From positions 320,330 to 384,329 of the forward strand of contig QZIT01000005.1 in the NCBI GenBank assembly GCA_003599145.1: a stretch of 64,000 nt of DNA, read 5' to 3'. The position numbers and the translations under genes are program-made. Each line of letters begins with the position of its first letter. Position 1 is the first letter of the stretch. Shown here piece by piece: positions 29,713-56,840 of the stretch. This DNA is from Candidatus Woesearchaeota archaeon. GTDB lineage: Archaea > Nanobdellota > Nanobdellia > Woesearchaeales > UBA9642. Below the pieces are notes generated by a model. It saw nothing but the letters and a program-made list of their open reading frames with translations. It was not told the DNA's origin and searched no databases.

Positions 29713-30978
29713 ATGATTGACCTTAAGCTTATCCGAGAAAATCCTGAACTAGTCAAGGAAAACATCAAAAAGAAATTCCAGAATGAAAAACTGGTTGATG
29801 AAGTTATTCAGTTTGATGAAGAATGGAGAAAACTCAAAGGGCAGGAAGATGCTTTGAGAAGCGAGAGAAATAAAATTTCTGAAGAGATTAACAAGCTGAA
29901 GAAAGAAGGAAAAGACGTATCTTCTGTTGTAAAAAAGGCAAAAGACATCCCTGTAAAGATTCAGGAATCAGAGTCTAGAAGAAAAGAGCTTGAGGAAAAA
30001 ATAAAGCAACATATGCTGAAAATTCCCAATATCATGCATGCATCTGTTCCTATAGGAAAAGATGCTTCTGAAAACGTTGAAGTGCGCAAGTGGGGAAAAC
30101 CAAAAAAGCCAAAGTTTGAACTGCTCAACCATGCAGAACTCATTGAAAATATGGGCTATGCGGATTTCGATGCAGGAAGAAGCAATGCAGGACAGGGCTT
30201 TAATTATTTAATGGGACAAATGGCATTATTGGACAATGCACTGCAAAGATATGGTGTTGACTTTCTCAGAGAAAAAGGATTTAAACTGGTTGTTCCTCCC
30301 TTAACCTTAAACTTTGAAACACTTTTGGGAGCTTTAAATGGGCTTGAAGACTTTGAGCAGGTTGTTTATAAGATAGATAATGAAGATTTGTATTTAATAG
30401 GAACAGCAGAGCATGCGCTGGTATCCTTGTTGAAGAATAAAGTTCTTCAGGAGCTGCCTATGAAATTCTGTGCCGTTACGCCTTGCTTTAGAAAAGAAAT
30501 AGGCGCCCATGGAGTTGACACTAAAGGATTATTCAGAATGCACCAGTTTAACAAAGTAGAGCAGGTTGTTTTTTCAAACCCTGAAAATTCATTTAAAATG
30601 CTTGAAGAAATGCAAAAAATAACAGAGGCGTTCATTAAAAGTTTAGGAATCCCTTACAGGGTTATTGAAATATGCAGCGGCGATTTAGGAGCTAAATTTG
30701 CAAAGCAGTATGACATCGAAGCATGGTTTCCCAGACAGGATAACTATGCAGAGATTACCTCTGCAGGAAGCTGCACTGATTTTCAGGCAAGAGCCCTGAA
30801 TATACGGTATCAAAAGGGAAACGACAAGGAATATGTGCATATTCTGAACAACACCATGGTTGCAACGTCAAGAGTCATGGTTGCCATACTGGAAAACTTT
30901 CAGCAAAAAGACGGCAGTGTCAAAGTTCCCAAAGCATTGGTAAAGTATATGGGCATAAAGAAAATCAGCCCTCAATGA
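29713..30978 (+). CDS. serS: seryl-tRNA synthetase (bacterial/canonical type)
   Basis: The N-terminal coiled-coil arm 'MIDLKLIRENPELVKENIKKKF' is followed by a class II core with motifs 'FRKE', 'RMHQFNKVEQV' and 'GSCTDFQARAL'. Confidence 0.9.
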   Translation: MIDLKLIRENPELVKENIKKKFQNEKLVDEVIQFDEEWRKLKGQEDALRSERNKISEEINKLKKEGKDVSSVVKKAKDIPVKIQESESRRKELEEKIKQHMLKIPNIMHASVPIGKDASENVEVRKWGKPKKPKFELLNHAELIENMGYADFDAGRSNAGQGFNYLMGQMALLDNALQRYGVDFLREKGFKLVVPPLTLNFETLLGALNGLEDFEQVVYKIDNEDLYLIGTAEHALVSLLKNKVLQELPMKFCAVTPCFRKEIGAHGVDTKGLFRMHQFNKVEQVVFSNPENSFKMLEEMQKITEAFIKSLGIPYRVIEICSGDLGAKFAKQYDIEAWFPRQDNYAEITSAGSCTDFQARALNIRYQKGNDKEYVHILNNTMVATSRVMVAILENFQQKDGSVKVPKALVKYMGIKKISPQ

Positions 30979-31165
30979 TGTTTTCTGTTTTAAATTCCTT
31001 TAAAAAATTTCTTTCCTTCACAAACAACAGCTCTATGCCTATAACCACCCCGTTTTTATCAAAGTCAACAAGGGTGTTTTTATCCATTTCCTTAGTGCAG
31101 TCTACGTTTCCCTCACTCAAAGTAATATAAAGAGCGTCTGCATTAGAATCGTAGCGTAGTTTCAT
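30965..31165 (-). CDS. DUF2283-family small protein
   Basis: Taking the internal ATG gives 'MKLRYDSNADALYITLSEG...EMDKNTLVDFDKNGVVIGIELL', the DUF2283 pattern. The longer track ORF 30965..31258 would overlap the upstream gene by 97 nt. With this start the overlap with the upstream DUF4258 gene is ATGA. Confidence 0.55.
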   Translation of the reverse strand: MKLRYDSNADALYITLSEGNVDCTKEMDKNTLVDFDKNGVVIGIELLFVKERNFLKEFKTENIIEG

Positions 31166-31398
31166 TTTATGAAATAAGCAGTGATTATCTTTATATATTT
31201 TTCCTTTAAATAAACAACTTTTAGCGTATAGCCATTTAATTTTTTTATAGCATAACATCTATTAGTTTCCTTGAACGTTATGTCTGGAAAGTGTATGGTT
31301 TCCTCTACCCAAATTTTTTCTATTTTGCGTTCTCGTAATTGCCGTATTGCATGATACGTATATATGAAGTTCACTAAAGTCTTTAAAGCAACAGACAA
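31162..31398 (-). CDS. DUF4258-family small protein (toxin-like partner of DUF2283)
   Basis: The 78-aa product 'MSVALKTLVNFIYTYHAIRQLRERKIEKIWVEETIHFPD...' has the DUF4258 pattern 'H...R...R.I'. The pairing with DUF2283 is common. Confidence 0.5.
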   Translation of the reverse strand: MSVALKTLVNFIYTYHAIRQLRERKIEKIWVEETIHFPDITFKETNRCYAIKKLNGYTLKVVYLKEKYIKIITAYFIK

Positions 31399-31490
31399 TA
31401 TATGCGTTAACCATCCAAAATTGAAAATATTACGGGCAATAGGAGAAATTTTGCATAATATTTATATACTCACTTCTGCAATAGTGCAGT

Positions 31491-31985
31491 ATGCTGTCCA
31501 AGTTTTTGCAGGGTTTGATGTTTGTCAATCAGTTCACTATAGATAATGGACAGGTGGATATTCTGGGAAACAAGCAATTATTGCTGCCTGTGCAGATTAT
31601 TGAATTGCTCAATGACAAAAAAGCGTATGATTTCATCAAGCAAACCGTTAAAATAGGCATGGATGAAGAAATAAGGAAAATAGGCTCTACAACGCCATTA
31701 CAGAGGTTTAACAACCTCAAGGACCTGATGAATACGTTTGGCATTGGCAATATTGATGTGACATTTATTGACTCCAAAAAGCAGAAAGCAATGATTCAGA
31801 TAAATAACAGCACCATAGCGAATTACTACATCAGCCAAAGAAAAAAAACAACGGTTCCTGTATGCGTTATAACTAAAGCAGTGCTTGCAGGCGCGTTCAG
31901 TTCGTTTTTTGGAAAGGATGTTGATTCAGAAGAAACCAAATGCATGAGTTTAGGAGAGAATTACTGCCAGTTTTCAATAAAATAA
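31491..31985 (+). CDS. V4R-domain protein, paralog 1
   Basis: The C-terminus 'PVCVITKAVLAGAFSSFFGKDVDSEETKCMSLGENYCQF' carries the V4R Cys triad. The true start may be 31518 (MFVNQ...). It aligns with the ORF at 33598. Confidence 0.55.
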   Translation: MLSKFLQGLMFVNQFTIDNGQVDILGNKQLLLPVQIIELLNDKKAYDFIKQTVKIGMDEEIRKIGSTTPLQRFNNLKDLMNTFGIGNIDVTFIDSKKQKAMIQINNSTIANYYISQRKKTTVPVCVITKAVLAGAFSSFFGKDVDSEETKCMSLGENYCQFSIK

Positions 31986-32020
31986 AAAGATTTAAATAAA
32001 ACAAAACAGGTGAAAACACT

Positions 32021-32455
32021 ATGATGACCTTAGAAGTTTCTGGAATTATGGTAAAAAACGTAGTGACCTTTACCGTGAAGGATAGTGTAGAGAAAATAGC
32101 AAAGGAAATGACCAAGAAAAATATATCTTGCGTGGTCATTATCGATAAAAAAGGCAAGCCTATTTCTGTCATTACAGAAAGGGATTTGCTGAAAAAAATT
32201 GTCAGCAAAGGCATAACCATAAAAGGATTAATTGCAAAAAACATCATGAGTGACGGCCTGATAACCGTTCAGGGCAATGAAAACGTATTCAGAGCAGCAG
32301 CTTTAATGGAAAAGAAAAAAATAAGAAGGCTGCCTGTGGTTGATAAAACGGGAAAATTAATAGGACTGGTTACTGAAACAGACATTGTCAAATCACTAAC
32401 CAATGTTGCCAAATATCTTAATGATAAACTGATAGAATATATTACTACTGCTTGA
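32021..32455 (+). CDS. CBS-domain pair protein
   Basis: Two CBS motifs are present: 'IMVKNVVTFTVKDSV...ISCVVIIDKKGKPISVITERDLL' and 'IMSDGLITVQGNENV...IRRLPVVDKTGKLIGLVTETDIV'. Confidence 0.8.
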   Translation: MMTLEVSGIMVKNVVTFTVKDSVEKIAKEMTKKNISCVVIIDKKGKPISVITERDLLKKIVSKGITIKGLIAKNIMSDGLITVQGNENVFRAAALMEKKKIRRLPVVDKTGKLIGLVTETDIVKSLTNVAKYLNDKLIEYITTA

Positions 32456-32456
32456 G

Positions 32457-33230
32457 GTGAAAATGATGCAAAGAAGTAAAACAGGAATTAAGGGTTTTGA
32501 TAAATTAGTTGAAGGAGGCTTTCCAGCAGGAACAACCATTTTGTATACAGGAACTCCGGGAACAGGAAAAACAATTTTTGCGCTGGAATATTTATACAAC
32601 GGAGCGACCATGTTCAAGGAAAAAGGGCTGTTTGTTACCTTTGAAGAAAGCAAGGAAGAAGTTTTGGAGCAGGGAAAGCAATTTGGATGGAATTTTGCAG
32701 ATTTGGAAAAGAAAGGATTGCTAAAAATCATAGCCATACCTGCAAGGGAGATTTCCAAAAACACCAGCAACGACATACTGGAAATGTGCAAGAAAGAGAA
32801 ATACAAGAGATTAGTTGTTGATTCGCTTTCGACATTGTCAGTCAATGCACCTATTTTTTCTGTTGCAGAGCATCTTTCCATCAGCGAAGTGGTCAATCAA
32901 AGCACGGTATTCAGCCCGCCTGTTGTAGGAGATTTGATGGTAAAAAGGTTTATTTACGGGTTTATCGATGACTTAAGGCAGATTAATGGGATAACTACCT
33001 TGCTGATAAGCGAAAACAGCATCCATTCAGACTTTTTATCCAGAGATACTGTCTCAGAATTTTTATGCGATGGCGTTATTGTAGTCACGTTTGAAAGTTT
33101 GGGCGGAGCTTACTCAAGATCATTGTTAGTAAGGAAAATGCGACAGACCAAAAACGATGAAGACATTCATCCCTTGGAAATAAACAAGGATGGAGTCATT
33201 ATCCACGACATTGATGAGAAAGGAAAATAA
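32457..33230 (+). CDS. single-domain KaiC/RadA-like ATPase
   Basis: 'GIKGFDKLVEGGFPAGTTILYTGTPGTGKT' (Walker A) and 'LVVDSLS' (Walker B) are present. The start is 1 nt after the CBS gene stop and is preceded by GAGGTGA. Confidence 0.8.
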   Translation: MKMMQRSKTGIKGFDKLVEGGFPAGTTILYTGTPGTGKTIFALEYLYNGATMFKEKGLFVTFEESKEEVLEQGKQFGWNFADLEKKGLLKIIAIPAREISKNTSNDILEMCKKEKYKRLVVDSLSTLSVNAPIFSVAEHLSISEVVNQSTVFSPPVVGDLMVKRFIYGFIDDLRQINGITTLLISENSIHSDFLSRDTVSEFLCDGVIVVTFESLGGAYSRSLLVRKMRQTKNDEDIHPLEINKDGVIIHDIDEKGK

Positions 33231-33597: not shown

Positions 33598-34146
33598 GTG
33601 CAAACACAACATTTTTATACTATTCTTTCTCCTATAAATATCATGCTAAACCCATTTATCCAAAGATTAATGCTTATGAGACAATTTTCCATGGATAATG
33701 CAAAGATTACCTTACTCAAGCAAGAGCAGTTTCTTGTAGATACTGATTTTATATCGCTTGTTCAGGAGATGCACCCAAAAGAATTTTATGACGTCGTTAA
33801 AAAAAATGCTCAGGAAAAAGTTACTGCATATACGCAAGTATTAGGTTCAAGCCCTGAAAACATATCTGAAGAAACATTAAAATCTATGTTTGGAACGCTT
33901 GGTTTTGGCAATGTTCAAATCATGCAATTAAATAAGGAAAAACAAAGGGTTTTTTTAAAACTGCTGGATAGCCCTATTGTTGCTAGCTATAAAAAAATGA
34001 AGAAAAAAAGCAAAGAGCCCGTCTGCATTTTCATTTCCGCAGTACTTGCAGGAGCGTTTCAGGCAATTTTCAAAAAAAATGTTGAATGCAAAGAAACTGA
34101 CTGTACTATAATAAAAGGCGATGGATGTCATTTCATCGTTGAATAA
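33598..34146 (+). CDS. V4R-domain protein, paralog 2
   Basis: The C-terminus 'PVCIFISAVLAGAFQAIFKKNVECKETDCTIIKGDGCHF' has the V4R triad. The N-terminal region 'FSMDNAKITLLKQEQFLVDTDF' aligns with paralog 1 'FTIDNGQVDILGNKQLLLPVQI'. Confidence 0.55.
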   Translation: MQTQHFYTILSPINIMLNPFIQRLMLMRQFSMDNAKITLLKQEQFLVDTDFISLVQEMHPKEFYDVVKKNAQEKVTAYTQVLGSSPENISEETLKSMFGTLGFGNVQIMQLNKEKQRVFLKLLDSPIVASYKKMKKKSKEPVCIFISAVLAGAFQAIFKKNVECKETDCTIIKGDGCHFIVE

Positions 34147-34156
34147 GAGGGTGACA

Positions 34157-34615
34157 ATGAAAACAAAACACATTTTCGTGGCAACATTGGATATCAATGA
34201 ATTATTTCCCTTTTCCGTATCTGATAAAAAAGAAATTGAAGAAGGCTTAAAAGACCAGCAACGGGTAAGGCAAGAACTTGAAAAATTCATAGGCCTATTG
34301 GAAAAACATGGCAACCAGAAAATATTCTATATGGGTTCAGATATCATAGAATCAAAATATTATGAACGATTTCTATTTGAAAAAAACGGCTTTTTAGAAG
34401 TTATGATGGATAAACCGGTAGCTGTCAATGCGCATTTTACAGAAAAAAAGCACGCAGAGAGCTTCTGCAAAGCAATAAAAAAAGCGCTCTTGAATTTATT
34501 ATCAGATACTCCTGTTTCAAAAATGTTCATAGACGCAATAGAAGTACAAACAGAAGCAGAGCAAAGTTTAACGTATCAAACATGGGAACAGATAAAAGAT
34601 ATTCGCAACAAATAA
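34157..34615 (+). CDS. hypothetical protein (~152 aa)
   Basis: The ATG at 34157 is preceded by GGTGA. The longer track ORF from 34121 overlaps the previous gene. Confidence 0.4.
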   Translation: MKTKHIFVATLDINELFPFSVSDKKEIEEGLKDQQRVRQELEKFIGLLEKHGNQKIFYMGSDIIESKYYERFLFEKNGFLEVMMDKPVAVNAHFTEKKHAESFCKAIKKALLNLLSDTPVSKMFIDAIEVQTEAEQSLTYQTWEQIKDIRNK

Positions 34616-34628
34616 GAGGTGAAGTATC

Positions 34629-35936
34629 ATGATTGAGAAATTAATGAAGGGCAAAAAAAATATTTTTATCGGAACAGGCATCAGCTATAAAGATAATCCC
34701 GCAGAGGCAGGCAAAGAAGCAGTGGAAATGGCATTGAAAAATTCTCAATCTCAAAAACCAGAATTTGTTATTATATTTGCTTCAGCAAAGAAATATGGAA
34801 CAGAAGAAAAGATGAATCTCCTTGCTAAAGCAGTTGACACGTATCTCACTTCAATAAACCAAAATATAAAATGGGTTGGTGCATCAAGCAAAAAAGAAAT
34901 TTCAAACTATGGATATACTGAGGGAAGTGTTGTTGCCATGGTCATCAATTCTCCGTATGTACATTTTGGTGTCGGCGTTGGACAGAATGTTACCAAAAAT
35001 TCTCTGAAAGCAGGAGAGCAGGCAGCAGAAAATGCAATTTCAAATGTAAAATTAGATTCCTATCTTGATCCATATTTGCATTTTCAGGCAATAAAAACGC
35101 AAAAAGTAGGAGACATCCTGCGAATGAAGCCTTACTTTTTCATGACTTTGTTTCCCGGAGTAACAAAAAAATATTTACCACAGGACAGCCAAGTGTTAAA
35201 AGGCATAACCAATATCGTCGGAGCACATCCTTTGTTTGGTGGAGATGCTGCAGACGATTGGACATTGACACAAACGTTCACTATTGCCAATGGCGTCGTC
35301 TATAAAGATGCTGTCGTTATTGCCTGCATTGTAAGCAATCTACAGTTTAATGTTGGAGTAAAGCATGGTTATGAACGAACAAACATGGTCATGGTCGTAA
35401 CCAAAGCAAAGGGAGGAGTTATTTATGAACTGAACAACAAACCTGCTGCTCAGGAATATGCCAGATTGACCAATGTTGCTGTTGAAGAATTGCGCAAAGA
35501 TGTCATACCAACACTATCACGAAATCCTATGGGCATGCCTGATAGCCAAGGAGAATATTGGCTAAATTTCCCGTATGCCGTTGTTGAAAAAGATGCGCTA
35601 GCATTTTACGAGCCTATCGCAGAAGGAACTGCTTTATTTATTATGAAAGCCAACAACCAGCAAATAGTCGACGCTGCAAAAACTGCAATTCAAAACGCCA
35701 CTAACAATCTAAAAGAAATTGAAGGTCTTATTGTTTTGAGCTGTTCTGCAAGATTAATTGCTCTAGGCAAAGACATTGAAAAAGAATATGCACTTATTAA
35801 GAAAGTTGTAAAGGATAAACCATTCATTGGTTTCAGCTGTTATGCAGAGCATGCGACCGTACCATCAGGAAGTGTGCAAAAACATGCCTATACATTTGTT
35901 ACGTTAGGATTGACCAACAAACTTATCAGCGACTAA
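34629..35936 (+). CDS. hypothetical protein, possibly a FIST-type sensory domain protein
   Basis: RBS GAGGTGA precedes the ATG. At 435 aa with two-lobed Gly-rich segments (GTGISY..., VGASSK...) it is compatible with FIST_N/FIST_C. I cannot verify this by eye. Confidence 0.3.
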   Translation: MIEKLMKGKKNIFIGTGISYKDNPAEAGKEAVEMALKNSQSQKPEFVIIFASAKKYGTEEKMNLLAKAVDTYLTSINQNIKWVGASSKKEISNYGYTEGSVVAMVINSPYVHFGVGVGQNVTKNSLKAGEQAAENAISNVKLDSYLDPYLHFQAIKTQKVGDILRMKPYFFMTLFPGVTKKYLPQDSQVLKGITNIVGAHPLFGGDAADDWTLTQTFTIANGVVYKDAVVIACIVSNLQFNVGVKHGYERTNMVMVVTKAKGGVIYELNNKPAAQEYARLTNVAVEELRKDVIPTLSRNPMGMPDSQGEYWLNFPYAVVEKDALAFYEPIAEGTALFIMKANNQQIVDAAKTAIQNATNNLKEIEGLIVLSCSARLIALGKDIEKEYALIKKVVKDKPFIGFSCYAEHATVPSGSVQKHAYTFVTLGLTNKLISD

Positions 35937-35996
35937 ACCACGAAAAAGTAGTAAAAAAAGGCAATATTTTTAAATTGTTGAGCATTCTTTTATCAT

Positions 35997-37385
35997 ATGG
36001 ACCAAGCAACATTAGAAACCAGATTAAAAGCATTGCATGATATTGGAGCGCCCGTCAGTATTCCTCAGAATAAAGAAACATTAGTACACAACATTATTGA
36101 AGCTTCAAAGATAACAAGACAGTTTGCAACGCTAGATGTTGACACATTGGTTTATATCTTTACCAAGTATGATGCACTTGTTCACCACCTGAACACGTTA
36201 TTGAAACTTGATGGCAAAAAACCATTGCAAGAACGAGTTGGCCAAGGAAATGTTGCTGCAATATTGCCCTATAATGGTCCATTAATGACCTTCGCATTGG
36301 CATTTGCAGGAGCATATTTGTTTCCTGAAAACAGTTTTGAAATAAAACCTGCAGGAGAATCTCAAAAAGTTTTTGAAAAATTCATAGAAATGATTCCTGA
36401 TGCCGATATGGCTATGCATCTTTATAATGCAAATAGAACTCCTCGCATCAGTACAGAATCAGGAATGAAATTCTTAACACGGCATTTATCACCTGCTTCT
36501 GGAACAAAAGTCATTGAAGTGTATGGTCATGATTCCATGATAACTCCAGAAGTTGAAAAAATGCTGATGGCAAATACGTCTGTACGGTATATTTTAGAAG
36601 GTCCTGGAAAGAATTGGTTTGTTGTGGGAGAAAATCCAGCTTCCGTACGATGTGCTGAAACCATGCTCAAAGCAGGATTGTTGAATTCTGGTCAGAGCTG
36701 TATGGCAGGAGAAATTTATGTTATTCACGATAGCGTTTATGAAAAGATAATAGATTACATATCTAAGCTTGCAAATCACGTGGTTGTGGGAGACCCTCAC
36801 AAAGCATCAACAGATGTTGGCCCCTTAAAAAACAGCCTTGCAAAAAGAATTGAAGAGCAAGTGAAAGACGCTTTGGAAAAGGGAGCAACGATTGCCTATT
36901 GCTCTAAAGAAGCTAAACTTCTAGAAAGAACAGAGCATTTTTATGATATAAACCCTGAAAGATTCAGGCTGATTCCTTACGACGCTGAACACATGCTTGT
37001 TCCCGTTATTATACTAAAAGACGTTACTTCAAAAATGAAAGTAAGACATGATGAAACCTTTGGACCTGTTATTGCTATAGGTAAATATCACCATGGCAGT
37101 GAAATCATTCCTGAATTATGGAGAGCAAGATACGGATTAGAAGCAACGGTGTTTGGAAGTGTGGATACTGCACTCATGCAGACCCTAGATGCCAATTTCG
37201 GTCACATCTTCCAAGATGCCTATTTTCTTGATCCTGGACAATTCGACATTCTTCTAAGCCCTTGGGGTGGAAAGAATTATTCAAGATTTTCTTTGCAGGG
37301 CATTACCAAATATGGAAACGCGGGAATAGAAAAAATTCAGACAGGTCCTGATTATATAGTATTGGATTTCAGCAAAGAGCCATAA
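35997..37385 (+). CDS. aldehyde dehydrogenase superfamily protein (possibly LuxC-like acyl-CoA reductase)
   Basis: 'EGPGKNWFVV' resembles ELGGK. 'LLNSGQSCMAGE' has the catalytic Cys context .N.GQ.C. 'DETFGPV' resembles EIFGPV. The first ~100 aa are atypical for classical ALDH. Confidence 0.6.
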   Translation: MDQATLETRLKALHDIGAPVSIPQNKETLVHNIIEASKITRQFATLDVDTLVYIFTKYDALVHHLNTLLKLDGKKPLQERVGQGNVAAILPYNGPLMTFALAFAGAYLFPENSFEIKPAGESQKVFEKFIEMIPDADMAMHLYNANRTPRISTESGMKFLTRHLSPASGTKVIEVYGHDSMITPEVEKMLMANTSVRYILEGPGKNWFVVGENPASVRCAETMLKAGLLNSGQSCMAGEIYVIHDSVYEKIIDYISKLANHVVVGDPHKASTDVGPLKNSLAKRIEEQVKDALEKGATIAYCSKEAKLLERTEHFYDINPERFRLIPYDAEHMLVPVIILKDVTSKMKVRHDETFGPVIAIGKYHHGSEIIPELWRARYGLEATVFGSVDTALMQTLDANFGHIFQDAYFLDPGQFDILLSPWGGKNYSRFSLQGITKYGNAGIEKIQTGPDYIVLDFSKEP

Positions 37386-37449
37386 AAGTCATTACTTAAA
37401 AATAGTAATATCAGAAAAATTTATAAATAACGCTCTGTTTGCTTCTCTT

Positions 37450-38895
37450 ATGACAGATCAATTCTTCATTCCAACACCTGTTAAAGAAAGAGATTTAGAA
37501 ACGCAGGTAGCTATAGCAGGAACAGGCGGAGTGCACCCTCCTTATCTTTTGGATGATGCAGTTATTGAACATTTTGTTCACAATTTTGATCCGAAAAGAG
37601 CGAAAAAAACATTTGCACAGGTACGAAGAGAAAAACTTGGGACAGAATTGCTTTTTCAAACAAGGCCTGAGTATACTATAGAAGACTGCATGGCAGACGC
37701 TGCAAAACAAGCCTTAGAGCGAGCAGGAATGACCATGAGCGATATTGCAGAAATTCATATTTCAACCGTAAGTCCAACAGACAGAATATCGCGAAGCAGG
37801 TCTGCTGTTTCTGAAAAATTAGGAGTAAATAATATTCCTATTATGGAACTATCTCATGGATGCGCAGGCTCTTTATATGCATTAGAAAGTGGCAGAAGAG
37901 CATCGCTTTTAAAAAATGCACCTATCCTTGTCATAGCAGGAGATGATGTAAGACGAGACGTTATTAACTTACAAGATTGGGCACAATCAGGCATTTTTGG
38001 TTCTGGAGCAGGATCTGCAATACTTGTGCCTGTAAAAAATGGCAAAGGACTGCATCCTGTTAATTTCTGGACAGATACAACCATAACGCCATATGCAAGA
38101 ATGGATCCTATGACTGGAAAATTTGCCATGGATGGAAAAAAGCTTGGAGAACTTGCACCTGCAACTTATCACGCATTTTTAGATTATTTATTGCAAGCGT
38201 ATAACTTACCAAAAGACAAAGTATATGTTATTCCACATCAATTAAACGGTCATCTTATAGAAGAATTTAGAAAACAAGCAGAATTAAGAGAAGATCAAGT
38301 ATTAAATATAGTAAATAGATTTGGAAATACTTCAAATGGTTCTGTGTTACTTGCATTAAATCATGCAATAACTCATCGTCTGAAAATAGGCAATTATGGA
38401 GTTATTTTTGGTGTTGGCGCAGGATTTGATAAGGCATGCAGCATTTACGAACCTGATAGAGAATTAATATTGCCAAGAGTTATCAAAATTCTTATTGCAG
38501 ACGATGAACAAGGAGTTCGGGAAAGCAAGGTGATGGGCTATCAAACATTTTTGGAAGGACATGAAAAACTTCCTCAAAATGTCAGCTTTGAATATCACAC
38601 GGCAACAAGTGGTGAAGAAGCATTCCAAATGGCACTGGAAATCCATCCAGATATTCTGGATTTCGACCAGCGTATGGAAGGCATGAACGGTTCCACTGCT
38701 GCAACCATGATTCATGAAGCACTAGGACCTATTCCTACCGTTATTAATTCTGGCTTCTCTGACGCTGCAGATATGCGAGCATTTGGAGAGTTAAAATTAA
38801 CCAAGCATAGAGAGTACATATTAAAACAGGATATGAACATCATGGACTATGCAAATTTTCTTGTAGAATTTATGTACAAGTCAAATATTTTATAA
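37450..38895 (+). CDS. FabH/KAS III-like condensing enzyme fused to a C-terminal CheY-like receiver (REC) domain
   Basis: The thiolase-fold motifs are 'SHGCAGSLYAL' (Cys), 'GIFGSGAGSAIL', 'VIPHQLNGHLI' (His), 'RFGNTSNGSVLLAL' (Asn) and 'FGVGAGF'. The REC motifs are 'ILIADDE', 'DILDFDQRMEGMNG', 'TVINSGFSD' and 'LKLTKH'. The two parts form one continuous ORF. Confidence 0.75.
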   Translation: MTDQFFIPTPVKERDLETQVAIAGTGGVHPPYLLDDAVIEHFVHNFDPKRAKKTFAQVRREKLGTELLFQTRPEYTIEDCMADAAKQALERAGMTMSDIAEIHISTVSPTDRISRSRSAVSEKLGVNNIPIMELSHGCAGSLYALESGRRASLLKNAPILVIAGDDVRRDVINLQDWAQSGIFGSGAGSAILVPVKNGKGLHPVNFWTDTTITPYARMDPMTGKFAMDGKKLGELAPATYHAFLDYLLQAYNLPKDKVYVIPHQLNGHLIEEFRKQAELREDQVLNIVNRFGNTSNGSVLLALNHAITHRLKIGNYGVIFGVGAGFDKACSIYEPDRELILPRVIKILIADDEQGVRESKVMGYQTFLEGHEKLPQNVSFEYHTATSGEEAFQMALEIHPDILDFDQRMEGMNGSTAATMIHEALGPIPTVINSGFSDAADMRAFGELKLTKHREYILKQDMNIMDYANFLVEFMYKSNIL

Positions 38896-40353
38896 AGGAA
38901 GATATAAGTTTACCATCAATCCTTCTGGTTGATTTTCGATCGTCATATTTCCTTTGTAAGAAGCCATAATCATTTGGCAGCTTTTCAATCCAAAGCCACC
39001 TTTACCTTCGCTGGGAAGTCTTGTAGTATAACTAGTGTCAAATGCTCTTTCAATATCCTTCTCAGGAATGCCTCCTGCATGATCTGAAAATGAAATAACT
39101 ACATATGACTGGTCTACAGTTGTCGTCACTTGCAAAACACGCTTTGGTTCTGGAATACTTTTTCTTTTGTAACTTGCAAGAGCATTGTCTATAAGGTTTT
39201 GAAAAACAGACGCCATTTCCTGACGAGAAACATTGACTTGAGGTGTTGGCCGATAGTCCTTTGAAATGTGCAGTAATCCATCATAAAGAGATAAAACATC
39301 GTCAAGAGACTCCGTAATATTTTGAAGTTTTGCATCCTGCACAGGCTCTGCCAATCGAGACATTCTTAACGTATAACCTTTTAATCTCGCAACAGCTGTT
39401 GCTGCACTCGTCAAGCAAGGATCGACACCGTCATATTTTTGTTTTTTCAGCATTGCATGCGCAATAACAAGATTGTCATCGATAATTTTTGCAACATTGT
39501 TGATATTATGAGCAGCATCTTGAGCCAAATTCGCAAGAACAGAACGACTCTCACTTAAGACAAGCTGATGCTGAGTTGATTGGAGCTCTTCATACAGATG
39601 TTGGCTAATGATAGCATCTGCTACTGCAGATAATGACAGAGTAATTCCTGTAGCCAAGTCTCTTGCTCGTTCAACAAGTTCTAAAGGCACCGGCTCATCG
39701 TCAGCAATATTAAGCTTTTGTCTATCAAGACTTGATAATACAACGTTGCCAACAACATAAACGCCCGTTTCATCAACTTCAACACAAGGCAGTATTACCG
39801 ATCTAGCAAAATCTCCTAAAGTCATGTTCGATTGAGAATATCTCCGAAATGACGTCGTCAAATCAGATAAAAAAGATTCAGGTAATGTTCCTTGTTGTAT
39901 TTGTTCGTTTAAATAAGATTCATTGAGATATGTTTGATAGGGTTCTCCATTTAAAAAAGGGTTTATATGTTCTAGACCAATAGCTACGGAAGCAGGAGTT
40001 TCTAAGTACTCTCCAAGATAAAAAACGCCATCAGTTCCTATTGCAGACACTGCAATAAAACTAGCAATATCTGGGAAATATAATGTCGCTAACTCAGTTC
40101 TTCCCTCTTTAGTTTTTAGCTTCTCTCTTACTGCAGATACACCCAAAGACGTTCTTTGCTGCTGAATTTCTCGTGCATTAGCATAACTTCTCTTCAATTT
40201 AGACGTAATAGGCACATTTGTTTCTATTGACTGGAAAGGAAGCACCTGTAAAATAGACTCTAACCCTTGTCTTAAACCTGCCACTCCTCCATGAAGAACT
40301 ATTCCTTTACGAGAAACTGTCTCAATAGTAGCTGAATCAATAGTGGAACCCAT
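38890..40353 (-). CDS. sensor histidine kinase (cytoplasmic sensor region + HisKA + HATPase_c)
   Basis: The C-terminus has an N-box 'FQNLIDNALAS' and a G-box 'GKGGFGLKSCQ'. There is no TM segment. It converges on the FabH-REC gene and overlaps it by 6 nt. Confidence 0.7.
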   Translation of the reverse strand: MGSTIDSATIETVSRKGIVLHGGVAGLRQGLESILQVLPFQSIETNVPITSKLKRSYANAREIQQQRTSLGVSAVREKLKTKEGRTELATLYFPDIASFIAVSAIGTDGVFYLGEYLETPASVAIGLEHINPFLNGEPYQTYLNESYLNEQIQQGTLPESFLSDLTTSFRRYSQSNMTLGDFARSVILPCVEVDETGVYVVGNVVLSSLDRQKLNIADDEPVPLELVERARDLATGITLSLSAVADAIISQHLYEELQSTQHQLVLSESRSVLANLAQDAAHNINNVAKIIDDNLVIAHAMLKKQKYDGVDPCLTSAATAVARLKGYTLRMSRLAEPVQDAKLQNITESLDDVLSLYDGLLHISKDYRPTPQVNVSRQEMASVFQNLIDNALASYKRKSIPEPKRVLQVTTTVDQSYVVISFSDHAGGIPEKDIERAFDTSYTTRLPSEGKGGFGLKSCQMIMASYKGNMTIENQPEGLMVNLYLPL

Positions 40354-40411
40354 AGAAAAAAAGAATCAAAAACAGTATATAAATTTTACTATTAAATAAT
40401 AGTAAAAAAAT

Positions 40412-43899: not shown

Positions 43900-45492
43900 C
43901 TAACCCTTCGCAATCTTTCTTGCAATACTTTTTCTATGGCGATGTTCATGCTTTTCATACACATACAGATAGCCTATGGCAATGCCCACGGCATAGCATA
44001 TCCCCAATAACAAAGAGCTCAAGAGTGAAAGATGCATGGTCATGATGAAGTATCGCGTAAAATTTACCAAAACAAAAGCATAAATCAAAGAAACAGCAAA
44101 CACAAACACTTCAGGAATTATTTTTATCGTGCTGATATCGTTGGACTTGCTGATAATCTTTATTAAAAAGATGCAGGAGACAATGCCTATAAGCAATGTT
44201 AAAACGTAAATCACGAAGGCGCTTTTTATCAAGGCAATCATCATTAAAATAAGAAAAAACAGCACGAAATAATTAGTCGCCAAAAACAATATCAGCAATA
44301 AAAAGTAAAAATGGGGCTTGTGCAATTGCTTTTTCATGATGGCATAAATCAGCAAGCTTTGATTAACAGAAAAGAACAGCAAAAACAGCAGTTTATCGTA
44401 AAAGAACGTAAAGTTCATTGCAATAAATCCTCTCACGATATTTCCTATGGATGTTCTCAGCAATGCATAGAGGATGGGAATTGAGTAAAAAACAAAAAAG
44501 CCTATGGTTATCAGCAATCCAACAATAACAAACAATGCATACCATTGAATGACTTTTTTTTCATAGGGATGCGGATGAAAAACAAACAACGGCTGAAACT
44601 TGGATTTAATATATAACTTTGTTTTTTCCAGAAGGTTATAAATGCCCAGCCAGTGCTCAAACGCATAGTAGATATCTGTCTTTAAAAAGAATAAAAACTG
44701 CCATAGCAATCCAAAAAACTCTAGTAAAATAATAAATTTCAAAAATCCGTACAGCAAAAGTGAAAAATGAAAAAACATGTCACTGAAAAACAACAGCAAT
44801 AAGGAAACGGCAATCACTAAACAATCTGCAAGCATACCTGCAAAAATAACCCTAAATCGTTTTTCTCTTGACACTGCATACAGGTTGGTAACATCAGTAA
44901 TAGCAACCAAAAAATGCAGTTTGTGGGTAATTCCAAATTTTGCCTTTACCTGCAAAGACCGTGCTGCAAGATAATGTCCGAATTCATGCAGCAATACAAA
45001 AAACCAACCAGCAAGAAAAGACAAGGGAAGCAAAATAATGTAGAGGTCAGTAAAAAAATAATCCCTGCTTCTGGGAAAATACTGGGGGTTCATAATAAGA
45101 ACAGCTAAAGCAAAGAGAAACAGCATAAAATAGACAGTGTATGCCAACGGAGAAAAGAAAGGTCTTGCTATTTTTGGCTGGATAAAATCATAGAGTTTTT
45201 TTGCAGGTTCATCATGCAAGGATTTCTTGTCAAGGGTTTTAACAAATCCGTGCTCTATCAATGCATGAACAAATCCTCTCAGATCAACAAATCCGTGTTT
45301 TGCTCTTACAGCTTTTTCAACAGCATCAAGCGCATGCCCTTTTTTAATTTCCTGAATAATGTCAACTCCAAGCTTAGGCATCAAAACAAAAATCTCTGTT
45401 TTTTCCCTTCCGACAATATAGTGCGATTTATCCTTGGTTATGCTTAAGTCATGCAATCCTAAAACGCTCTTTTTTGAAAAATGAACAGACAT
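43900..45492 (-). CDS. polytopic membrane zinc metalloprotease (HExxH), M50-like
   Basis: 'LLHEFGHYLAARSL' lies within a TM-rich body. The N-terminal ~90 aa form a soluble domain. Confidence 0.5.
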   Translation of the reverse strand: MSVHFSKKSVLGLHDLSITKDKSHYIVGREKTEIFVLMPKLGVDIIQEIKKGHALDAVEKAVRAKHGFVDLRGFVHALIEHGFVKTLDKKSLHDEPAKKLYDFIQPKIARPFFSPLAYTVYFMLFLFALAVLIMNPQYFPRSRDYFFTDLYIILLPLSFLAGWFFVLLHEFGHYLAARSLQVKAKFGITHKLHFLVAITDVTNLYAVSREKRFRVIFAGMLADCLVIAVSLLLLFFSDMFFHFSLLLYGFLKFIILLEFFGLLWQFLFFLKTDIYYAFEHWLGIYNLLEKTKLYIKSKFQPLFVFHPHPYEKKVIQWYALFVIVGLLITIGFFVFYSIPILYALLRTSIGNIVRGFIAMNFTFFYDKLLFLLFFSVNQSLLIYAIMKKQLHKPHFYFLLLILFLATNYFVLFFLILMMIALIKSAFVIYVLTLLIGIVSCIFLIKIISKSNDISTIKIIPEVFVFAVSLIYAFVLVNFTRYFIMTMHLSLLSSLLLGICYAVGIAIGYLYVYEKHEHRHRKSIARKIAKG

Positions 45493-45532
45493 ACTGCAAT
45501 ATCAGCATGCTTGTTTTAATAAGTTTTTGTTT

Positions 45533-45868
45533 TCAGAAATCAAATCTTCCATCTGAAGACTGGTCAACAAGGCTTGCTGCATGCAAGTCTTCCTGCTTGG
45601 CAACCATGGCATTGTTGCAGTAAGGGCACCTGCTGACCACGGCGCCTTTTTTTCTGCTGAACTTATAACCGCATTTCTTGCAATACCATTTGTCTACTTC
45701 CTTTTGTTCTGCAGGCTTTACGGTTGGCGCAGGCCTTGCAGTTTGCGGATTCTGTCTTGCATAGCAATCCTCGCAAATAAGGTTTTTGCCTGTCTTATCA
45801 TATTTCATAGTCATAACCCTAAAGCGATTGCCGCATGAATTGCACTTCAATTTAAGCTCTGCATCCAT
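45533..45868 (-). CDS. double zinc-ribbon protein
   Basis: Cys pairs are 'CNSCGN...CEDC' and 'CKKCGY...CPYC'. The start is taken at MDAELK, 27 codons into the longer track ORF. Confidence 0.45.
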   Translation of the reverse strand: MDAELKLKCNSCGNRFRVMTMKYDKTGKNLICEDCYARQNPQTARPAPTVKPAEQKEVDKWYCKKCGYKFSRKKGAVVSRCPYCNNAMVAKQEDLHAASLVDQSSDGRFDF

Positions 45869-45952
45869 AGCTTTTAAGATGATTTGGTAATTTATATAGT
45901 TTATGGAAGAGCCTACGAATAGGTATATAAATGCCCTTCCGCTACGCAAAGC

Positions 45953-46579
45953 ATGGACTATAACCAGAACAAGCTAAAGGCAAAAGAGCGCTTACTTGAC
46001 TTCTTTAAAAAAAAAGGCAAAAGCCCTTTGACAAGCAGCAGAATACCTCCTGGGCAGCACACCGTTTCAGGGTTTCCCGTATTGGATTTAGGCGCTCAAC
46101 CAAGCATGGATCTAAGCATGTGGAAGCTCAAAATAAGCGGCTTGGCCAAAGGAGAGTTTTTCCTTGAAGAACTGAAACAATTAGGCGTTCAGGAATACAC
46201 CAAGGACTTTCACTGTGTCACCAGCTGGACTAAACTTGATGTTGCATGGAAAGGCATACCTATAAAAAACATCCTTAAAAAAGTCAATCCTGACCCTTCC
46301 TGGAAGTTTCTTATACAGTACGGCAAAGACGGCTACAGCACCAATGTTTCCAGAGAAGATATAGAACATGACGATGTTTTTCTTGCCTTTGAGCTGAATC
46401 ATAAGCCAATTCCTAAAGAACACGGCTTTGTAAGGTTGATCATACCGCACTTATACGGATGGAAGGCAAGCAAATTCCTTACAGAGCTTGAGTTTTCTCT
46501 AGAAGATAAGCCTGGATTCTGGGAAGTTAGGGGTTATCACAACAGAGGAAACGCATTCAAAGAAGAACGATATGACTAA
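45953..46579 (+). CDS. sulfite-oxidase-family molybdopterin-binding oxidoreductase domain protein
   Basis: The Moco-domain pattern 'HCVTSWTKLDVAWKGIPIKNIL...GYSTNV...HGFVRLIIPHLYGWKASKFLTELEF' is present. Confidence 0.65.
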   Translation: MDYNQNKLKAKERLLDFFKKKGKSPLTSSRIPPGQHTVSGFPVLDLGAQPSMDLSMWKLKISGLAKGEFFLEELKQLGVQEYTKDFHCVTSWTKLDVAWKGIPIKNILKKVNPDPSWKFLIQYGKDGYSTNVSREDIEHDDVFLAFELNHKPIPKEHGFVRLIIPHLYGWKASKFLTELEFSLEDKPGFWEVRGYHNRGNAFKEERYD

Positions 46580-46616
46580 TGAAAACTTTTATAAAGCATT
46601 CCTCTCTAAATAAAGT

Positions 46617-47627
46617 ATGGCTGAAGAGAAAACATCAAGGCTTTTCTTCTTTATCATACTGTTAATTTTTCTGATACTGACTTTTCTATTAATACGCCCT
46701 TTTTTCGGCTATATTGTTTTAGGCATTATTTTGGCAATCATCTGCTTTCCTGTTTATCAATGGCTTGTTAGAAAGATAAAGCATGAGAATACTGCCGCAG
46801 GCATCATGATTGTGCTTATCTTGCTTTTAATCATCATCCCTAGTTTTCTCGTTGTCAACAAATTAGTGATTGAAACCAAAAAAGCAGTTATTGGTTTTGG
46901 CAATGAAGGAGCATTTTCTTCAGCAATAGACAATCTTGAAGAAAAAACAGGCATTGACATCAGAGTGTATGTTTCGAACATTTTTCTCACCGTAAAAAAC
47001 TATATTATAAGCGCTGCTCCGAAACTCATTACGAGCATAGCAGGCATTCTTTTAGGGATTTTTGTCATGTTTTTCATCATGTTCTATACGTTCAAAGGCG
47101 GCAATCAATTGCTAGAGGAATTTAAAGAGCTGCTGCCTTTAAAGAAAAAATACAAGGTAAAGCTCTTCAGCGAAACAGAAAACGTCATCAAGGGCGTTCT
47201 GTATGGACAGGTTGTTACTGCGTTTGTTCAGGGAATTCTTGGATGGCTGGTACTTTTTATTTTTGGAGTTCCCAATCATTTATTCTGGGGATTTATCATG
47301 CTGATCCTTGCATTCCTTCCTGTTGTCGGCACTCCGCTGATATTTGTTCCTGCAGGCATATACATGCTTCTCCATGGGAATATTACCTCAGGCATGTTGA
47401 TTCTCATACTGGGATTTACCATAGTCATGAATATTGACAATTATATCAAACCAAAGCTCATTAGCAACAAAACAAAGATTCCTCCTGTTGTTGCACTTAT
47501 TGGAGTCTTAGGAGGATTTGCCGTGTTTGGATTTGTAGGCATCATTTTAGGACCATTGATTATTGCACTCTTTATGGTGCTCCTGCGATTCTACAATGAA
47601 GACTTTAAAGAAAGCATTAACGAATAA
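46617..47627 (+). CDS. AI-2E family transporter (PerM/UPF0118)
   Basis: The protein is polytopic. Family-typical segments are 'LYGQVVTAFVQGILGW', 'FLPVVGTPLIFVPAGI' and 'PVVALIGVLGGFAVFGFVGIILGP'. Confidence 0.75.
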   Translation: MAEEKTSRLFFFIILLIFLILTFLLIRPFFGYIVLGIILAIICFPVYQWLVRKIKHENTAAGIMIVLILLLIIIPSFLVVNKLVIETKKAVIGFGNEGAFSSAIDNLEEKTGIDIRVYVSNIFLTVKNYIISAAPKLITSIAGILLGIFVMFFIMFYTFKGGNQLLEEFKELLPLKKKYKVKLFSETENVIKGVLYGQVVTAFVQGILGWLVLFIFGVPNHLFWGFIMLILAFLPVVGTPLIFVPAGIYMLLHGNITSGMLILILGFTIVMNIDNYIKPKLISNKTKIPPVVALIGVLGGFAVFGFVGIILGPLIIALFMVLLRFYNEDFKESINE

Positions 47628-49458: not shown

Positions 49459-50435
49459 GATTTATTGATGATTTCAGATGCATCTCCAACGTTCAAGGTC
49501 TTGAACGCGCCTTCAACCGTTGCATCTCTGCCTATAACAGAATCCTTAATCTGCGCATTGACAATCTCGCTTGCCTCATCGATAATGCTATTATTGATAA
49601 GTGAATTTTCAACTTTGGTATCTGCCGCAATAGAGACAAACGGACCTATAACTGAGTTTTTAATGACTGCACCATCTTCAATAAATACAGGGTCAATAAT
49701 AACTGAATTTTCTGTTTTTATTTTTTTGCTATGCTTTTTCAGCAACACTTTATTGGTTTCCAGCAGTGTTTCAATAGTGCCGCAATCCATCCACGCTTTC
49801 AAAGACTGTGTGGTTATTTTTTCTCCTTTTTTAAGCAGTAACGCAAGCGCATCAATCAAACGATATTCTCCTTTTGATTGCATATTATTTTTCATCGCTT
49901 CCTGGAGTGAGGAAAATAATAGTGAAGAATCGTAGAGATAATACATGCCTACAATGGCAAGATTGCTGACAGGTTTTTCAGGCTTCTCTACCATGCCTGT
50001 AACATAGCCGTTTTTTACCGTAACAACGCCAAATCTTCTAGAGTCTGCAACTTCCTTAATCCAGATAATATTTTCTTTTTTTCTTCGTGCTTCCTTAATA
50101 ACCGATAAATCCGCATCGAAGATGGTATCTGAGAAGATAATCAAGCAGTCTTCTTTGACATCCTCTTTAACCTGATAAATAGCAAAGCCGTCTCCCAATA
50201 ACTGCTGTTGTTTTTTGATGTTAAATTTAAAAGCATAGTCCTTCAAAAATGTTTTGACGGTATCTTCAAAATCGCTGATGATTAAATGCACTTTTGAAGG
50301 CTTTACAGCTTGAATCCTATCAAGAATATGGCCTAGCATAGGCTTGCCTGCAACATGAATAAGCGGCTTTGGCTTAGAAAAAGTATGAGGCCTCATTCTT
50401 TTTCCTATACCACCCATGGGAATGATGACTTCCAT
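49455..50435 (-). CDS. sugar-1-phosphate nucleotidyltransferase with C-terminal left-handed beta-helix
   Basis: With the start at MEVIIPMGG the protein opens 'MGGIGKRMRP...KPLIHVAGKPML', the G.G.R NTP_transferase motif. The C-terminus has hexapeptide repeats. The track's longer start (50564) is unlikely. Confidence 0.75.
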   Translation of the reverse strand: MEVIIPMGGIGKRMRPHTFSKPKPLIHVAGKPMLGHILDRIQAVKPSKVHLIISDFEDTVKTFLKDYAFKFNIKKQQQLLGDGFAIYQVKEDVKEDCLIIFSDTIFDADLSVIKEARRKKENIIWIKEVADSRRFGVVTVKNGYVTGMVEKPEKPVSNLAIVGMYYLYDSSLLFSSLQEAMKNNMQSKGEYRLIDALALLLKKGEKITTQSLKAWMDCGTIETLLETNKVLLKKHSKKIKTENSVIIDPVFIEDGAVIKNSVIGPFVSIAADTKVENSLINNSIIDEASEIVNAQIKDSVIGRDATVEGAFKTLNVGDASEIINKS

Positions 50436-50466
50436 AAGAATAAATCGCCAAACTTGATTTATAAAG

Positions 50467-51444: not shown

Positions 51445-51475
51445 TCATTTAAATACCTCTTTCTTTCTTGATACT

Positions 51476-53290: not shown

Positions 53291-53342
53291 AAATGTATTA
53301 GATTAAGCTTCTTTATTAATATATCGATGGCTGTAAAGAGAA

Positions 53343-54281: not shown

Positions 54282-54346
54282 AGCTCTATTGAAATAAAGT
54301 GATATATAAATCTTTGTTTAACTTGCTGAAGAGTAAAAAAAAGAAA

Positions 54347-56128: not shown

Positions 56129-56136
56129 TTTTCACC

Positions 56137-56517: not shown

Positions 56518-56840
56518 AGCTTCCCCATCAGATGTTCGTAAACAACAAGTTGGGCTTTTTTCTTTTCTTTGCAGTGTGCAATTTTTTCTGCAAGTTCAAA
56601 GTCTCTAAAAACATCTTTTATCCAATTGCTGAAATCATTTCTATGATCGTTAACATGATGAGAAAAGACGAAATCTTCCATGTCGCCTAAATCTTCTGCT
56701 AGCTCTTTGAGGTTTTTTATTTCTTTTCCGCTTGACAAAATAAACCAATACTCATGGCTCGGAGTGTTCTTTATGCCACTAGCAGGCAGTACCCTAGCCT
56801 TTTTCGTAATAGGAGAAGTCTTTTTAGCCATCATCCCCAC
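56511..56840 (-). CDS. small hypothetical protein, paralog B
   Basis: 'FVFSHHVNDHRNDFSNWIKDVFRDFELAEKI' parallels 'FGNHVNETKNDFANWIDQVIHDPYLAGKI'. Confidence 0.45.
   Translation of the reverse strand: MGMMAKKTSPITKKARVLPASGIKNTPSHEYWFILSSGKEIKNLKELAEDLGDMEDFVFSHHVNDHRNDFSNWIKDVFRDFELAEKIAHCKEKKKAQLVVYEHLMGKLW

Follow-up and report, generated by a model that had tools for sequence, protein, structure and literature searches.

In the 64,000-nucleotide stretch of DNA considered here (hereafter the window; contig QZIT01000005.1 of a Candidatus Woesearchaeota archaeon), one gene encodes a protein in which a thiolase-fold condensing enzyme of the ketosynthase III (KAS III, or FabH) type is followed, in the same chain, by a CheY-like phospho-receiver (REC) domain, and a cytoplasmic histidine kinase gene converges on it from the opposite strand. 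We propose, with moderate confidence, that the product of this fusion gene is a response regulator with a KAS III effector, which is controlled by the kinase, depends on coenzyme A (CoA) thioesters and works in partnership with an aldehyde dehydrogenase (ALDH). A preliminary description, drawn up from the sequence and its open reading frames (ORFs), had already read the gene as a response regulator with a thiolase-fold condensing output, the enzyme being N-terminal and the receiver C-terminal, and both domains are now borne out by hidden Markov model (HMM) searches, profile comparison and a structural model. The protein belongs to the REC superfamily and, broadly taken, to the KAS III family, and is not an orthodox FabH. 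The fusion gene, its domains, the residues on which the argument turns and the convergent kinase are listed here (aa, amino acids; nt, nucleotides).

37450..38895, plus strand: KAS III-REC fusion gene, a single ATG-to-TAA ORF of 481 aa
~37507-38454, plus strand: KAS III/FabH-like domain (aa ~20-335), thiolase fold
37861..37863, plus strand: codon of catalytic Cys138, the acyl acceptor, by alignment to the FabH catalytic Cys motif
38236-38238, plus strand: codon of catalytic His263, by alignment to the FabH catalytic His motif
38326-38328, plus strand: codon of catalytic Asn293, by alignment to the FabH catalytic Asn motif
8 aa, plus strand: linker between the KAS III and receiver domains
38476-38880, plus strand: receiver domain (aa 343-477)
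38500-38505, plus strand: codons of the acidic pair Asp351/Asp352, after beta1
38665..38667, plus strand: codon of the predicted phospho-acceptor Asp406, at the end of beta3, motif D-Q-R-M
38749-38751, plus strand: codon of Ser434, the conserved T/S position after beta4
38815-38817, plus strand: codon of the switch residue Tyr456, three residues ahead of Lys459
38824-38826, plus strand: codon of Lys459, in EYILK at the end of beta5
38890..40353, minus strand: cytoplasmic histidine kinase of 487 aa, DHp + CA/HATPase
39508-39510, minus strand: codon of the kinase phospho-His282, in the DHp domain, aligned to the phospho-His of FixL

The N-terminal half has the sequence regions and the catalytic residues of a condensing enzyme. 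Pfam places ACP_syn_III_C on residues 255-333 (E=8e-16, 58.4 bits against a cutoff of 26.6) and ACP_syn_III on residues 133-204 (25.0 bits against a cutoff of 24), which means that both regions characteristic of the thiolase fold are present. In phmmer alignments, Cys138 (SHGCAGS), His263 (IPHQLNG) and Asn293 (FGNTSNGS) fall in register with the solved FabH structures of S. aureus, B. subtilis and E. coli, so that the early concern over a possible misalignment of the catalytic residues can be set aside. The Cys-His-Asn triad, which within the KAS III family is of the type that carries out decarboxylative Claisen condensation, is invariant in 10/10 fusions and in 26/26 sequences of a wider alignment (A4). 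The 481-aa ORF and each of the KAS III motifs quoted in the preliminary description were recovered, namely SHGCAGSLYAL at residues 135-145, VIPHQLNGHLI at 260-270 and RFGNTSNGSV at 290-299, as well as the Gly-rich loops IFGSGAGSAIL at 182-192 and FGVGAGF at 320-326, and its assignment of this half to FabH/KAS III-like enzymes agrees with Pfam, with the alignment to solved FabH and with structure prediction.

The C-terminal half has the fold and the active-site residues of a receiver. Response_reg matches residues 347-445 of the fusion protein (Pfam, E=2.4e-6, 28.1 bits), which is just under the model's gathering cutoff, both KAS III models being above theirs. A receiver profile (A2) made from the C-terminal ~144 aa of four close homologs finds solved receivers, with VraR at E=1.9e-9 and Thermotoga CheY at 1e-6; a receiver match, the lack of which had been named beforehand as grounds for giving up the idea, was thus obtained by both routes. 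In the alignment to VraR, PDLLDFD falls on PDLILMD, INSxF on LMLTSF and YILK on YILK, which pick out Asp406, Ser434 and Lys459, respectively, and Asp406 is taken to be the phospho-acceptor because of the first of these matches. The hallmarks proposed in the preliminary description hold for the acidic pair (ILIADDE, residues 347-353), for the acceptor context (DILDFDQRMEGMNG, residues 401-414) and for the T/S position (TVINSGFSD, residues 430-438). The Lys that it had placed in LKLTKH was mistaken, since YILK aligns on the YILK of VraR, and the conserved residue is K459 in EYILK. Tyr456, by its distance from the conserved Lys, occupies the position of the aromatic switch residue of CheY, Tyr106.

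An AlphaFold2 model of the fusion, built from a 26-sequence alignment, has a mean predicted local distance difference test (pLDDT) score of 87.4 and a predicted template modelling score (pTM) of 0.88, and brings together in one chain a thiolase-fold half and a (beta-alpha)5 receiver of the flavodoxin-like fold, as had been anticipated. The five beta-alpha units occupy residues 343-477 in the order beta1 (343-350), alpha1, beta2 (378-385), alpha2, beta3 (402-406), alpha3, beta4 (430-433), alpha4, beta5 (456-458) and alpha5 (464-477). The active-site residues, of which all five (D351/D352, D406, S434 and K459) are present, sit at the C-terminal ends of beta1, beta3, beta4 and beta5. Receiver pLDDT is mostly 86-97 and is lowest, at 59-72, over residues 431-460 (alpha4-beta5), and the pTM of the model gives an indirect indication that the two domains have a defined arrangement relative to each other.

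The same fusion is found well beyond the window. An identical protein is deposited at NCBI as 'response regulator [Candidatus Woesearchaeota archaeon]', and three further full-length fusions of the same architecture (490, 486 and 483 aa) share 53, 55 and 45% identity with it. Six distant full-length fusions (P0043, P0045, P0046, P0048, P0052 and P0104) are 476-505 aa long and 23-28% identical, the subgroup P0052/P0104 having a more FabH-like look than the others, and the architecture occurs in about ten sequence clusters altogether, at 23-55% identity and from independent assemblies; the search of public genomes that had been suggested for this architecture has therefore found it repeatedly. 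The sequences were drawn from NCBI, JGI, ENA and Logan assemblies, and the GC content of their loci ranges from 30% to 75%. The family is small: when 1.84 billion cluster representatives were searched exhaustively with an HMM, the search that brought up the six distant fusions, only 8 proteins fell under E=1e-30. A scan of GTDB representative genomes with the fusion alignment gave one distant bacterial FabH and no fusion, a scan of metagenome contigs gave 33 plain KAS III loci (22-35% identity) and no further fusions, and a word-indexed search with the receiver alone added one fragment (P0042) and distant receivers of ~240 aa. An unfused relative (P0044) lies on a 4-kb contig with uninformative surroundings.

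Across ten fusions, C138, G140, H263, Q264, N293, S298, G323, G325 and D352 are invariant, D351, D406, R408, M409, G414 and K459 are kept in nine, and position 434 is Ser or Thr in every one. The acceptor motif D-Q-R-M-P is common to the family, whose enzyme half also has a motif of its own near the N-terminus (NFD..RA..F), and the junction of 8-12 aa between the domains is itself conserved (..GFD....Y.PDR.L....K[IV]L..DD). We hold with very high confidence that the fusion is a real gene under selection. One lineage (P0003/P0191, 16 contigs) carries D406T and a degenerate GMNG loop, and, by the loss of the acceptor Asp, its C-terminal domain counts as a pseudo-receiver.

The kinase gene overlaps the fusion gene by 6 nt, and the stop codons of the two share the palindrome TTATAA (38890-38895). 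Its product combines a DHp domain bearing a phospho-acceptor His with an ATPase domain of the GHKL type: HATPase_c matches at E=1.7e-13 (Pfam), and the kinase profile aligns to the DHp+CA region of FixL with H282 on the phospho-His, a residue invariant in three aligned kinases. The kinase gives no Pfam HisKA match and has no transmembrane segment, and its N-terminal ~250 aa contain no Pfam domain in any lineage. A convergent kinase stands at the 3' end of the fusion gene in seven of the nine lineages with visible downstream sequence (the window plus L001, L002, L042, L043, L046 and L048), at distances from a 32-nt overlap to a 190-nt gap, and all these kinases are homologous over DHp+CA. The convergent, overlapping sensor kinase of the preliminary description is accordingly a recurrent feature of the family. 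In six lineages the two genes overlap or nearly abut tail to tail (32-nt overlap to 2-nt gap), and this recurring geometry hints that their 3' ends overlap or that transcription of each gene interferes with that of the other.

Outside the family, the fusion receiver is most closely related to the C-terminal domain of P0047, with 54% identity over 139 aa. P0047 itself is bacterial and resembles zinc-finger anti-sigma proteins, and its gene comes after that of an ECF sigma factor. The kinase that faces P0047 is 42% identical to the window kinase over 241 aa of DHp+CA, and the window kinase is nearer to it than to the kinases of the archaeal sister loci (30-36%). These relationships suggest that receiver and kinase form a transferable, co-inherited cassette that has been joined to differing N-terminal effectors, and the co-inheritance in P0047 supports both the cognate pairing of kinase and receiver and the role of the N-terminal domain as the regulated output. 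In the P0003/P0191 lineage, the only one in which the acceptor Asp is replaced, neither a kinase gene nor a FIST-domain gene adjoins the fusion, which is a second, independent tie between kinase and receiver. We consider it likely that the convergent kinase phosphorylates the fusion protein. The bacterial locus itself (L049:5474-10122, with a Por_Secre_tail neighbour) consists of the ECF sigma factor, the anti-sigma-REC protein, a convergent REC-histidine kinase hybrid and then a CHASE2 kinase, and looks like a phospho-regulated anti-sigma factor made from the same REC/kinase cassette.

The partners on the other side of the fusion gene belong to a same-strand run of V4R, 164-aa protein, FIST, ALDH and KAS III-REC genes, with a SerRS gene, a further V4R gene, a CBS pair and a KaiC-like ATPase farther upstream.

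31491..33230, plus strand: V4R / CBS-pair / KaiC-like ATPase trio (Pfam), syntenic with L001
33598-34146, plus strand: V4R-domain protein (V4R E=5.8e-10)
34121-34615, plus strand: conserved 164-aa protein, overlapping the V4R gene and directly upstream of FIST
34629..35936, plus strand: stand-alone, NosP-like FIST_N+FIST_C protein of 435 aa (FIST E=3.8e-33, FIST_C E=4.2e-22)
35997..37385, plus strand: divergent aldehyde dehydrogenase of 462 aa, with Asn93, Glu201 and Cys235 (Aldedh E=5.4e-40)

The arrangement around the fusion gene in each lineage is given below, with genes in their order and the convergent histidine kinase named last.

Window and L001: V4R, unknown, FIST, ALDH, fusion; convergent kinase
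L043 (archaeal, with TFIIB, L37e and S8e): V4R, FIST, ALDH, fusion; convergent kinase
L045/46: SDR, ECH, ALDH, fusion; convergent kinase
L047/48: ALDH, fusion; convergent kinase
L041/42 (74.5% GC): SDR (opposite strand), ALDH, fusion; convergent kinase
L002/3: fusion, sequence upstream cut off; convergent kinase
L044: ALDH, ECH, fusion, GNAT, GNAT; no kinase
L051: ALDH, ECH, fusion; contig ends
L038-40: ALDH, fusion; no kinase, no FIST

The ALDH gene is the most constant of these partners, as it lies immediately upstream of the fusion gene in 9/9 lineages with visible upstream sequence, usually with a start/stop overlap. The enzyme is divergent, every NCBIfam ALDH model scoring far under its cutoff in the window protein, and alignment to the D-glyceraldehyde dehydrogenase of Thermoplasma locates its motifs at Asn93 (PYNGP), Glu201 (LEGPGK) and Cys235 (GQSC). 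Glu201 is invariant in the family alignment, and Cys235 is kept in seven of eight sequences. Genes for an ECH_1 crotonase, of the enoyl-CoA hydratase (ECH) type, and/or a short-chain dehydrogenase (SDR) acting as ketoreductase belong to the module in four lineages (L041, L044, L045/46 and L051); crotonases act on CoA thioesters. Neither an acyl carrier protein (ACP) gene nor any fab gene of the FabD, FabG, FabZ and FabI set was found among the surveyed genes of the window or in the related loci, and the small ORFs near the module that were tested as acyl carrier proteins gave no PP-binding match. From the ALDH partner, the crotonase and SDR genes and the non-FabH features of the condensing enzyme, we infer a short CoA-based chain-extension pathway. 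Two overlapping ORFs stand in for an intact ALDH gene in the lineage without acceptor Asp and kinase (L038:8549-9999, also in L039), a 112-aa N-terminal fragment (Aldedh profile 49-114) and a 391-aa remainder, which may reflect decay of the module or a frameshift.

The FIST gene is present in three lineages (the window, L001 and L043), each of which has the gene for a stand-alone FIST protein next to those for a response regulator and for a cytoplasmic kinase without a recognised sensor domain, which is the NosP type of arrangement. By analogy, the FIST protein is a candidate auxiliary sensor for the kinase. A V4R gene is also found ahead of FIST in L043. The 164-aa protein between V4R and FIST has no Pfam or PDB match and is, at 67% identity to its counterpart in L001, the most conserved gene of the run from V4R to the kinase. 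Compared in the same way, the window and L001 share 79% identity for the KaiC-like ATPase, 62% for V4R, 51% for SerRS, 45% for the fusion, 39% for FIST, 30% for the kinase and 25% for the ALDH. The block of SerRS, V4R, CBS pair and KaiC-like ATPase genes (29713-33230) is syntenic with L001, and KaiC-like ATPases occur near the module in L043; this V4R/CBS/KaiC block may be an associated or linked archaeal signalling hub, and its membership of the module is uncertain.

Taken together, these features can be arranged into a working mechanism. In the window lineage, a signal would be sensed through the stand-alone FIST protein, possibly together with the V4R and 164-aa proteins, and FIST would modulate the kinase as it does in the NosP/NosK/NosR system. 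The kinase would autophosphorylate on His282 and then phosphorylate the receiver on Asp406, whereupon the Ser434/Tyr456/Lys459 switch would alter either the packing of the receiver on the KAS III domain or the dimerisation of the latter. Condensation at Cys138/His263/Asn293 would thereby be turned on or off. The condensing enzyme would work with the co-expressed divergent ALDH, and with ECH and/or SDR enzymes in related lineages, the ALDH either supplying the primer by aldehyde oxidation or processing the product, and the substrates would probably be CoA thioesters rather than ACP thioesters. Signalling would thus act directly and post-translationally, by switching a short pathway of carbon-chain extension.

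Several observations weigh against this mechanism. The single-sequence Response_reg score of 28.1 bits is slightly under the gathering cutoff of 30.2 bits, and convergent rather than co-directional kinase and regulator genes are unusual. In the lineage of 74.5% GC the ALDH is without its catalytic Cys, and in L044 the acceptor Asp is intact and no kinase is adjacent. FIST is restricted to three lineages, and the window protein reaches 133.5 bits with the NosP equivalog model, against a cutoff of 450 bits. Finally, that neither ACP nor a source of malonyl-CoA was found is a statement about the window and about short contigs. Some of these points lend themselves to other explanations of the fusion, which differ in the role that they give to its two halves.

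The best sequence and structure matches of the N-terminal half are genuine FabH enzymes, and its triad is of the decarboxylative-condensation type; the protein might accordingly be an ordinary FabH of bacterial derivation, a housekeeping lipid enzyme that initiates ACP-dependent fatty-acid synthesis and to which a receiver was added. This is quite unlikely in our estimation, given that the FabH subfamily models of NCBIfam, although they are the nearest ones for the N-terminal 330 aa, score well under their cutoffs (120.6 vs 292.1 bits for TIGR00747, and 123 vs 249 bits for PRK09352). Moreover, of the residues that dock ACP in E. coli FabH (R249, K214, K256 and K257), R249 is replaced by H268, at a position that varies among the fusion family, K214 by E234 and K257 by Q276, and K256, kept as K275, is the sole basic position retained. 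The fusion thus has neither the basic docking patch nor, in the window and the related loci, the association with acpP and fab genes that mark an orthodox FabH; its invariable partner is an ALDH, and its host is a small-genome DPANN archaeon. Archaea generally lack ACP-based fatty-acid synthesis. An orthodox FabH was consequently rejected, on the sub-cutoff scores, the changed docking residues and the lack of ACP/fab genes in the loci surveyed. A different and somewhat better, yet still unlikely, reading reverses the flow of information: the KAS III-like domain would be an input that binds acyl-CoA, or is acylated at Cys138, and that controls the phosphorylation or the partners of the receiver, which would be the output or a phosphate sink, so that the protein would report metabolic status without making a product. 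The domain order does resemble that of sensor-receiver hybrids, the receiver cassette also occurs on non-enzymatic partners such as the anti-sigma protein of L049, and no product or downstream pathway is identifiable. The conservation of the triad and of the Gly-rich loops over 23-55% identity goes, however, beyond what ligand binding alone would need, the tight and often translationally coupled link to the ALDH, along with the ECH/SDR genes, points to a metabolic pathway, and the anti-sigma analogue clearly has its effector at the N-terminus.

It could also be supposed that the C-terminal domain is a pseudo-receiver with a structural or oligomerisation role, never phosphorylated, and that the kinase serves another regulator. 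The Pfam score just under cutoff would fit this, as would the retention of the domain in P0003/P0191 after loss of the acceptor Asp and the presence of that residue without an adjacent kinase in L044. Nevertheless, we judge it very improbable, because the five active-site residues and the switch Tyr are present and are conserved in 9/10 family members, kinase adjacency holds in 7/9 lineages, the lineage that lost the Asp is without the kinase as well, and receiver and kinase were inherited together in an unrelated bacterial system. As to an artefact, in which separate FabH and CheY-like genes would have been joined by a frameshift, a misassembly or a chimeric contig, nothing speaks for it beyond the prior possibility that attends any metagenome-assembled genome. 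The same frame and junction recur in about ten clusters from independent samples and assemblers, at GC contents from 30% to 75%, and because the junction is conserved in this way a frameshift or assembly join is excluded; we rejected this explanation, the chance of which is negligible, and the worry about assembly error voiced in the preliminary description falls with it.

The FabH/KAS III family, including such CoA-using members of signal or cofactor pathways as PqsD and BioZ, differs from the fusion in several respects: identity is ~24%, the NCBIfam FabH cutoffs are not reached, the C-terminal receiver is seen in no solved KAS III, and the partnership with an ALDH is unlike the fab, pqs or bio gene settings of these enzymes. 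On the signalling side, the arrangement in the window resembles NosP/NosK/NosR, in which a cytoplasmic kinase without a sensor of its own is bound by a FIST protein that determines how fast it autophosphorylates (PMC12570481). Common to both are a stand-alone FIST_N+FIST_C protein, a cytoplasmic DHp+CA kinase without a recognised sensor and an enzymatic response regulator. Unlike NosR, which has a domain that metabolises cyclic di-GMP (c-di-GMP), the fusion has a condensing enzyme as its output and carries the receiver at the C-terminus, and the kinase is convergent rather than co-operonic, the host is archaeal, and FIST is limited to the three lineages. We do not claim that the FIST protein senses nitric oxide or heme.

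Fusions of receivers with metabolic enzymes form a recognised class, and in the archaeal census of two-component systems they include fusions to a KaiC-type NTPase, a glycosyltransferase, a thioredoxin reductase and a pyruvate phosphate dikinase (PMC5847659). The census and its supplements hold no thiolase-fold or ketosynthase output and no FabH, ketoacyl or oxoacyl entry (PMC5847659), and a full-text literature search for FabH, ketoacyl or 3-oxoacyl together with a receiver domain returned nothing relevant, which is in keeping with the statement of the preliminary description that no such family was known to it. With CheB, PleD/WspR, RpfG and the receiver-metabolic enzyme fusions noted by Galperin, the family shares catalysis under phospho-control; unlike in CheB, PleD/WspR and RpfG, the domain order is inverted. 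Such an effector-then-receiver order is known from PhyR and CheV, so that, of the novelty seen at the outset, the condensing output stands and the C-terminal position of the receiver does not. As in PhyR, the effector comes first and the receiver last, and an intramolecular mechanism of docking and release is plausible; P0047, moreover, lies within the same sigma/anti-sigma regulatory sphere as PhyR. The effector of PhyR is a sigma-like protein-binding domain and not an enzyme, and the comparison made here concerns architecture. The fusion is thus a new output type within the known class of receiver-enzyme fusions, and not a new principle.

The remainder of the window offers some observations on the setting of these genes. 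TATA-box-like A/T elements lie ~25-30 nt upstream of the starts of the fusion, ALDH and kinase genes (in 37385-37450, 35936-35997 and 40353-40400, respectively), an example being TTTATAAA ahead of the fusion gene; they would fit separate leaderless archaeal transcripts, chance occurrence is likely in an AT-rich genome (38% GC), and they were not used as evidence. The region downstream of the kinase (43900-47627) encodes an M50 peptidase resembling site-2 proteases, on the minus strand at 43900-45492, together with a protein that has a molybdopterin oxidoreductase domain and, at 46617-47627, a transporter of the AI-2E family; in L043 an M50 peptidase gene directly adjoins the kinase. A glycogen/starch cluster follows on the minus strand (47617-59386), with a GDE_C amylo-1,6-glucosidase, a sugar-nucleotidyl transferase, a GalT-like protein, a glycogen synthase, a GH57 protein and a GT4/GT5 starch-synthase-like protein. 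Towards the other end, 8695-19777 holds an ORF of 1183 aa (minus strand) without a Pfam match and one of 1908 aa (plus strand) that matches Laminin_G_3 only and is probably a surface protein, and the first 6 kb consist of orphan ORFs, none with a Pfam match.

Characterised response regulators with an enzymatic output nearly all act on signalling molecules or proteins, that is, on c-di-GMP, methyl groups or phosphoproteins. If our interpretation is true, control of a thiolase-fold enzyme by its receiver would place primary carbon-chain chemistry clearly under a two-component system, and would add a new class of output. The family is tiny and has a fixed set of partners (the ALDH, the convergent kinase and sometimes FIST, crotonase or SDR proteins), which makes for a small system that can be put to the test with three or four soluble proteins, and a portable REC/kinase phospho-switch could be of interest to protein engineers. 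The fusion is found mostly in uncultured, small-genome archaea, in which little is understood of either signalling or acyl metabolism. Since signalling molecules are made by KAS III relatives elsewhere, what the enzyme makes could bear on the interaction of symbiont and host. Tentatively, and as a conjecture that we hold to be less probable than not, we suggest that the kinase, joined by a FIST sensor in some lineages, phospho-gates an ACP-independent, CoA-based mini-pathway of KAS III and a dedicated ALDH, with or without crotonase and ketoreductase, that yields a diffusible or lipid-like small molecule, and that there is no transcriptional or second-messenger output; this would hold for DPANN-type archaea and for at least one lineage of high GC that is probably bacterial. 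If so, this would amount to signal-controlled biosynthesis in organisms thought to be nearly without lipid or secondary metabolism, and it might serve communication between host and symbiont.

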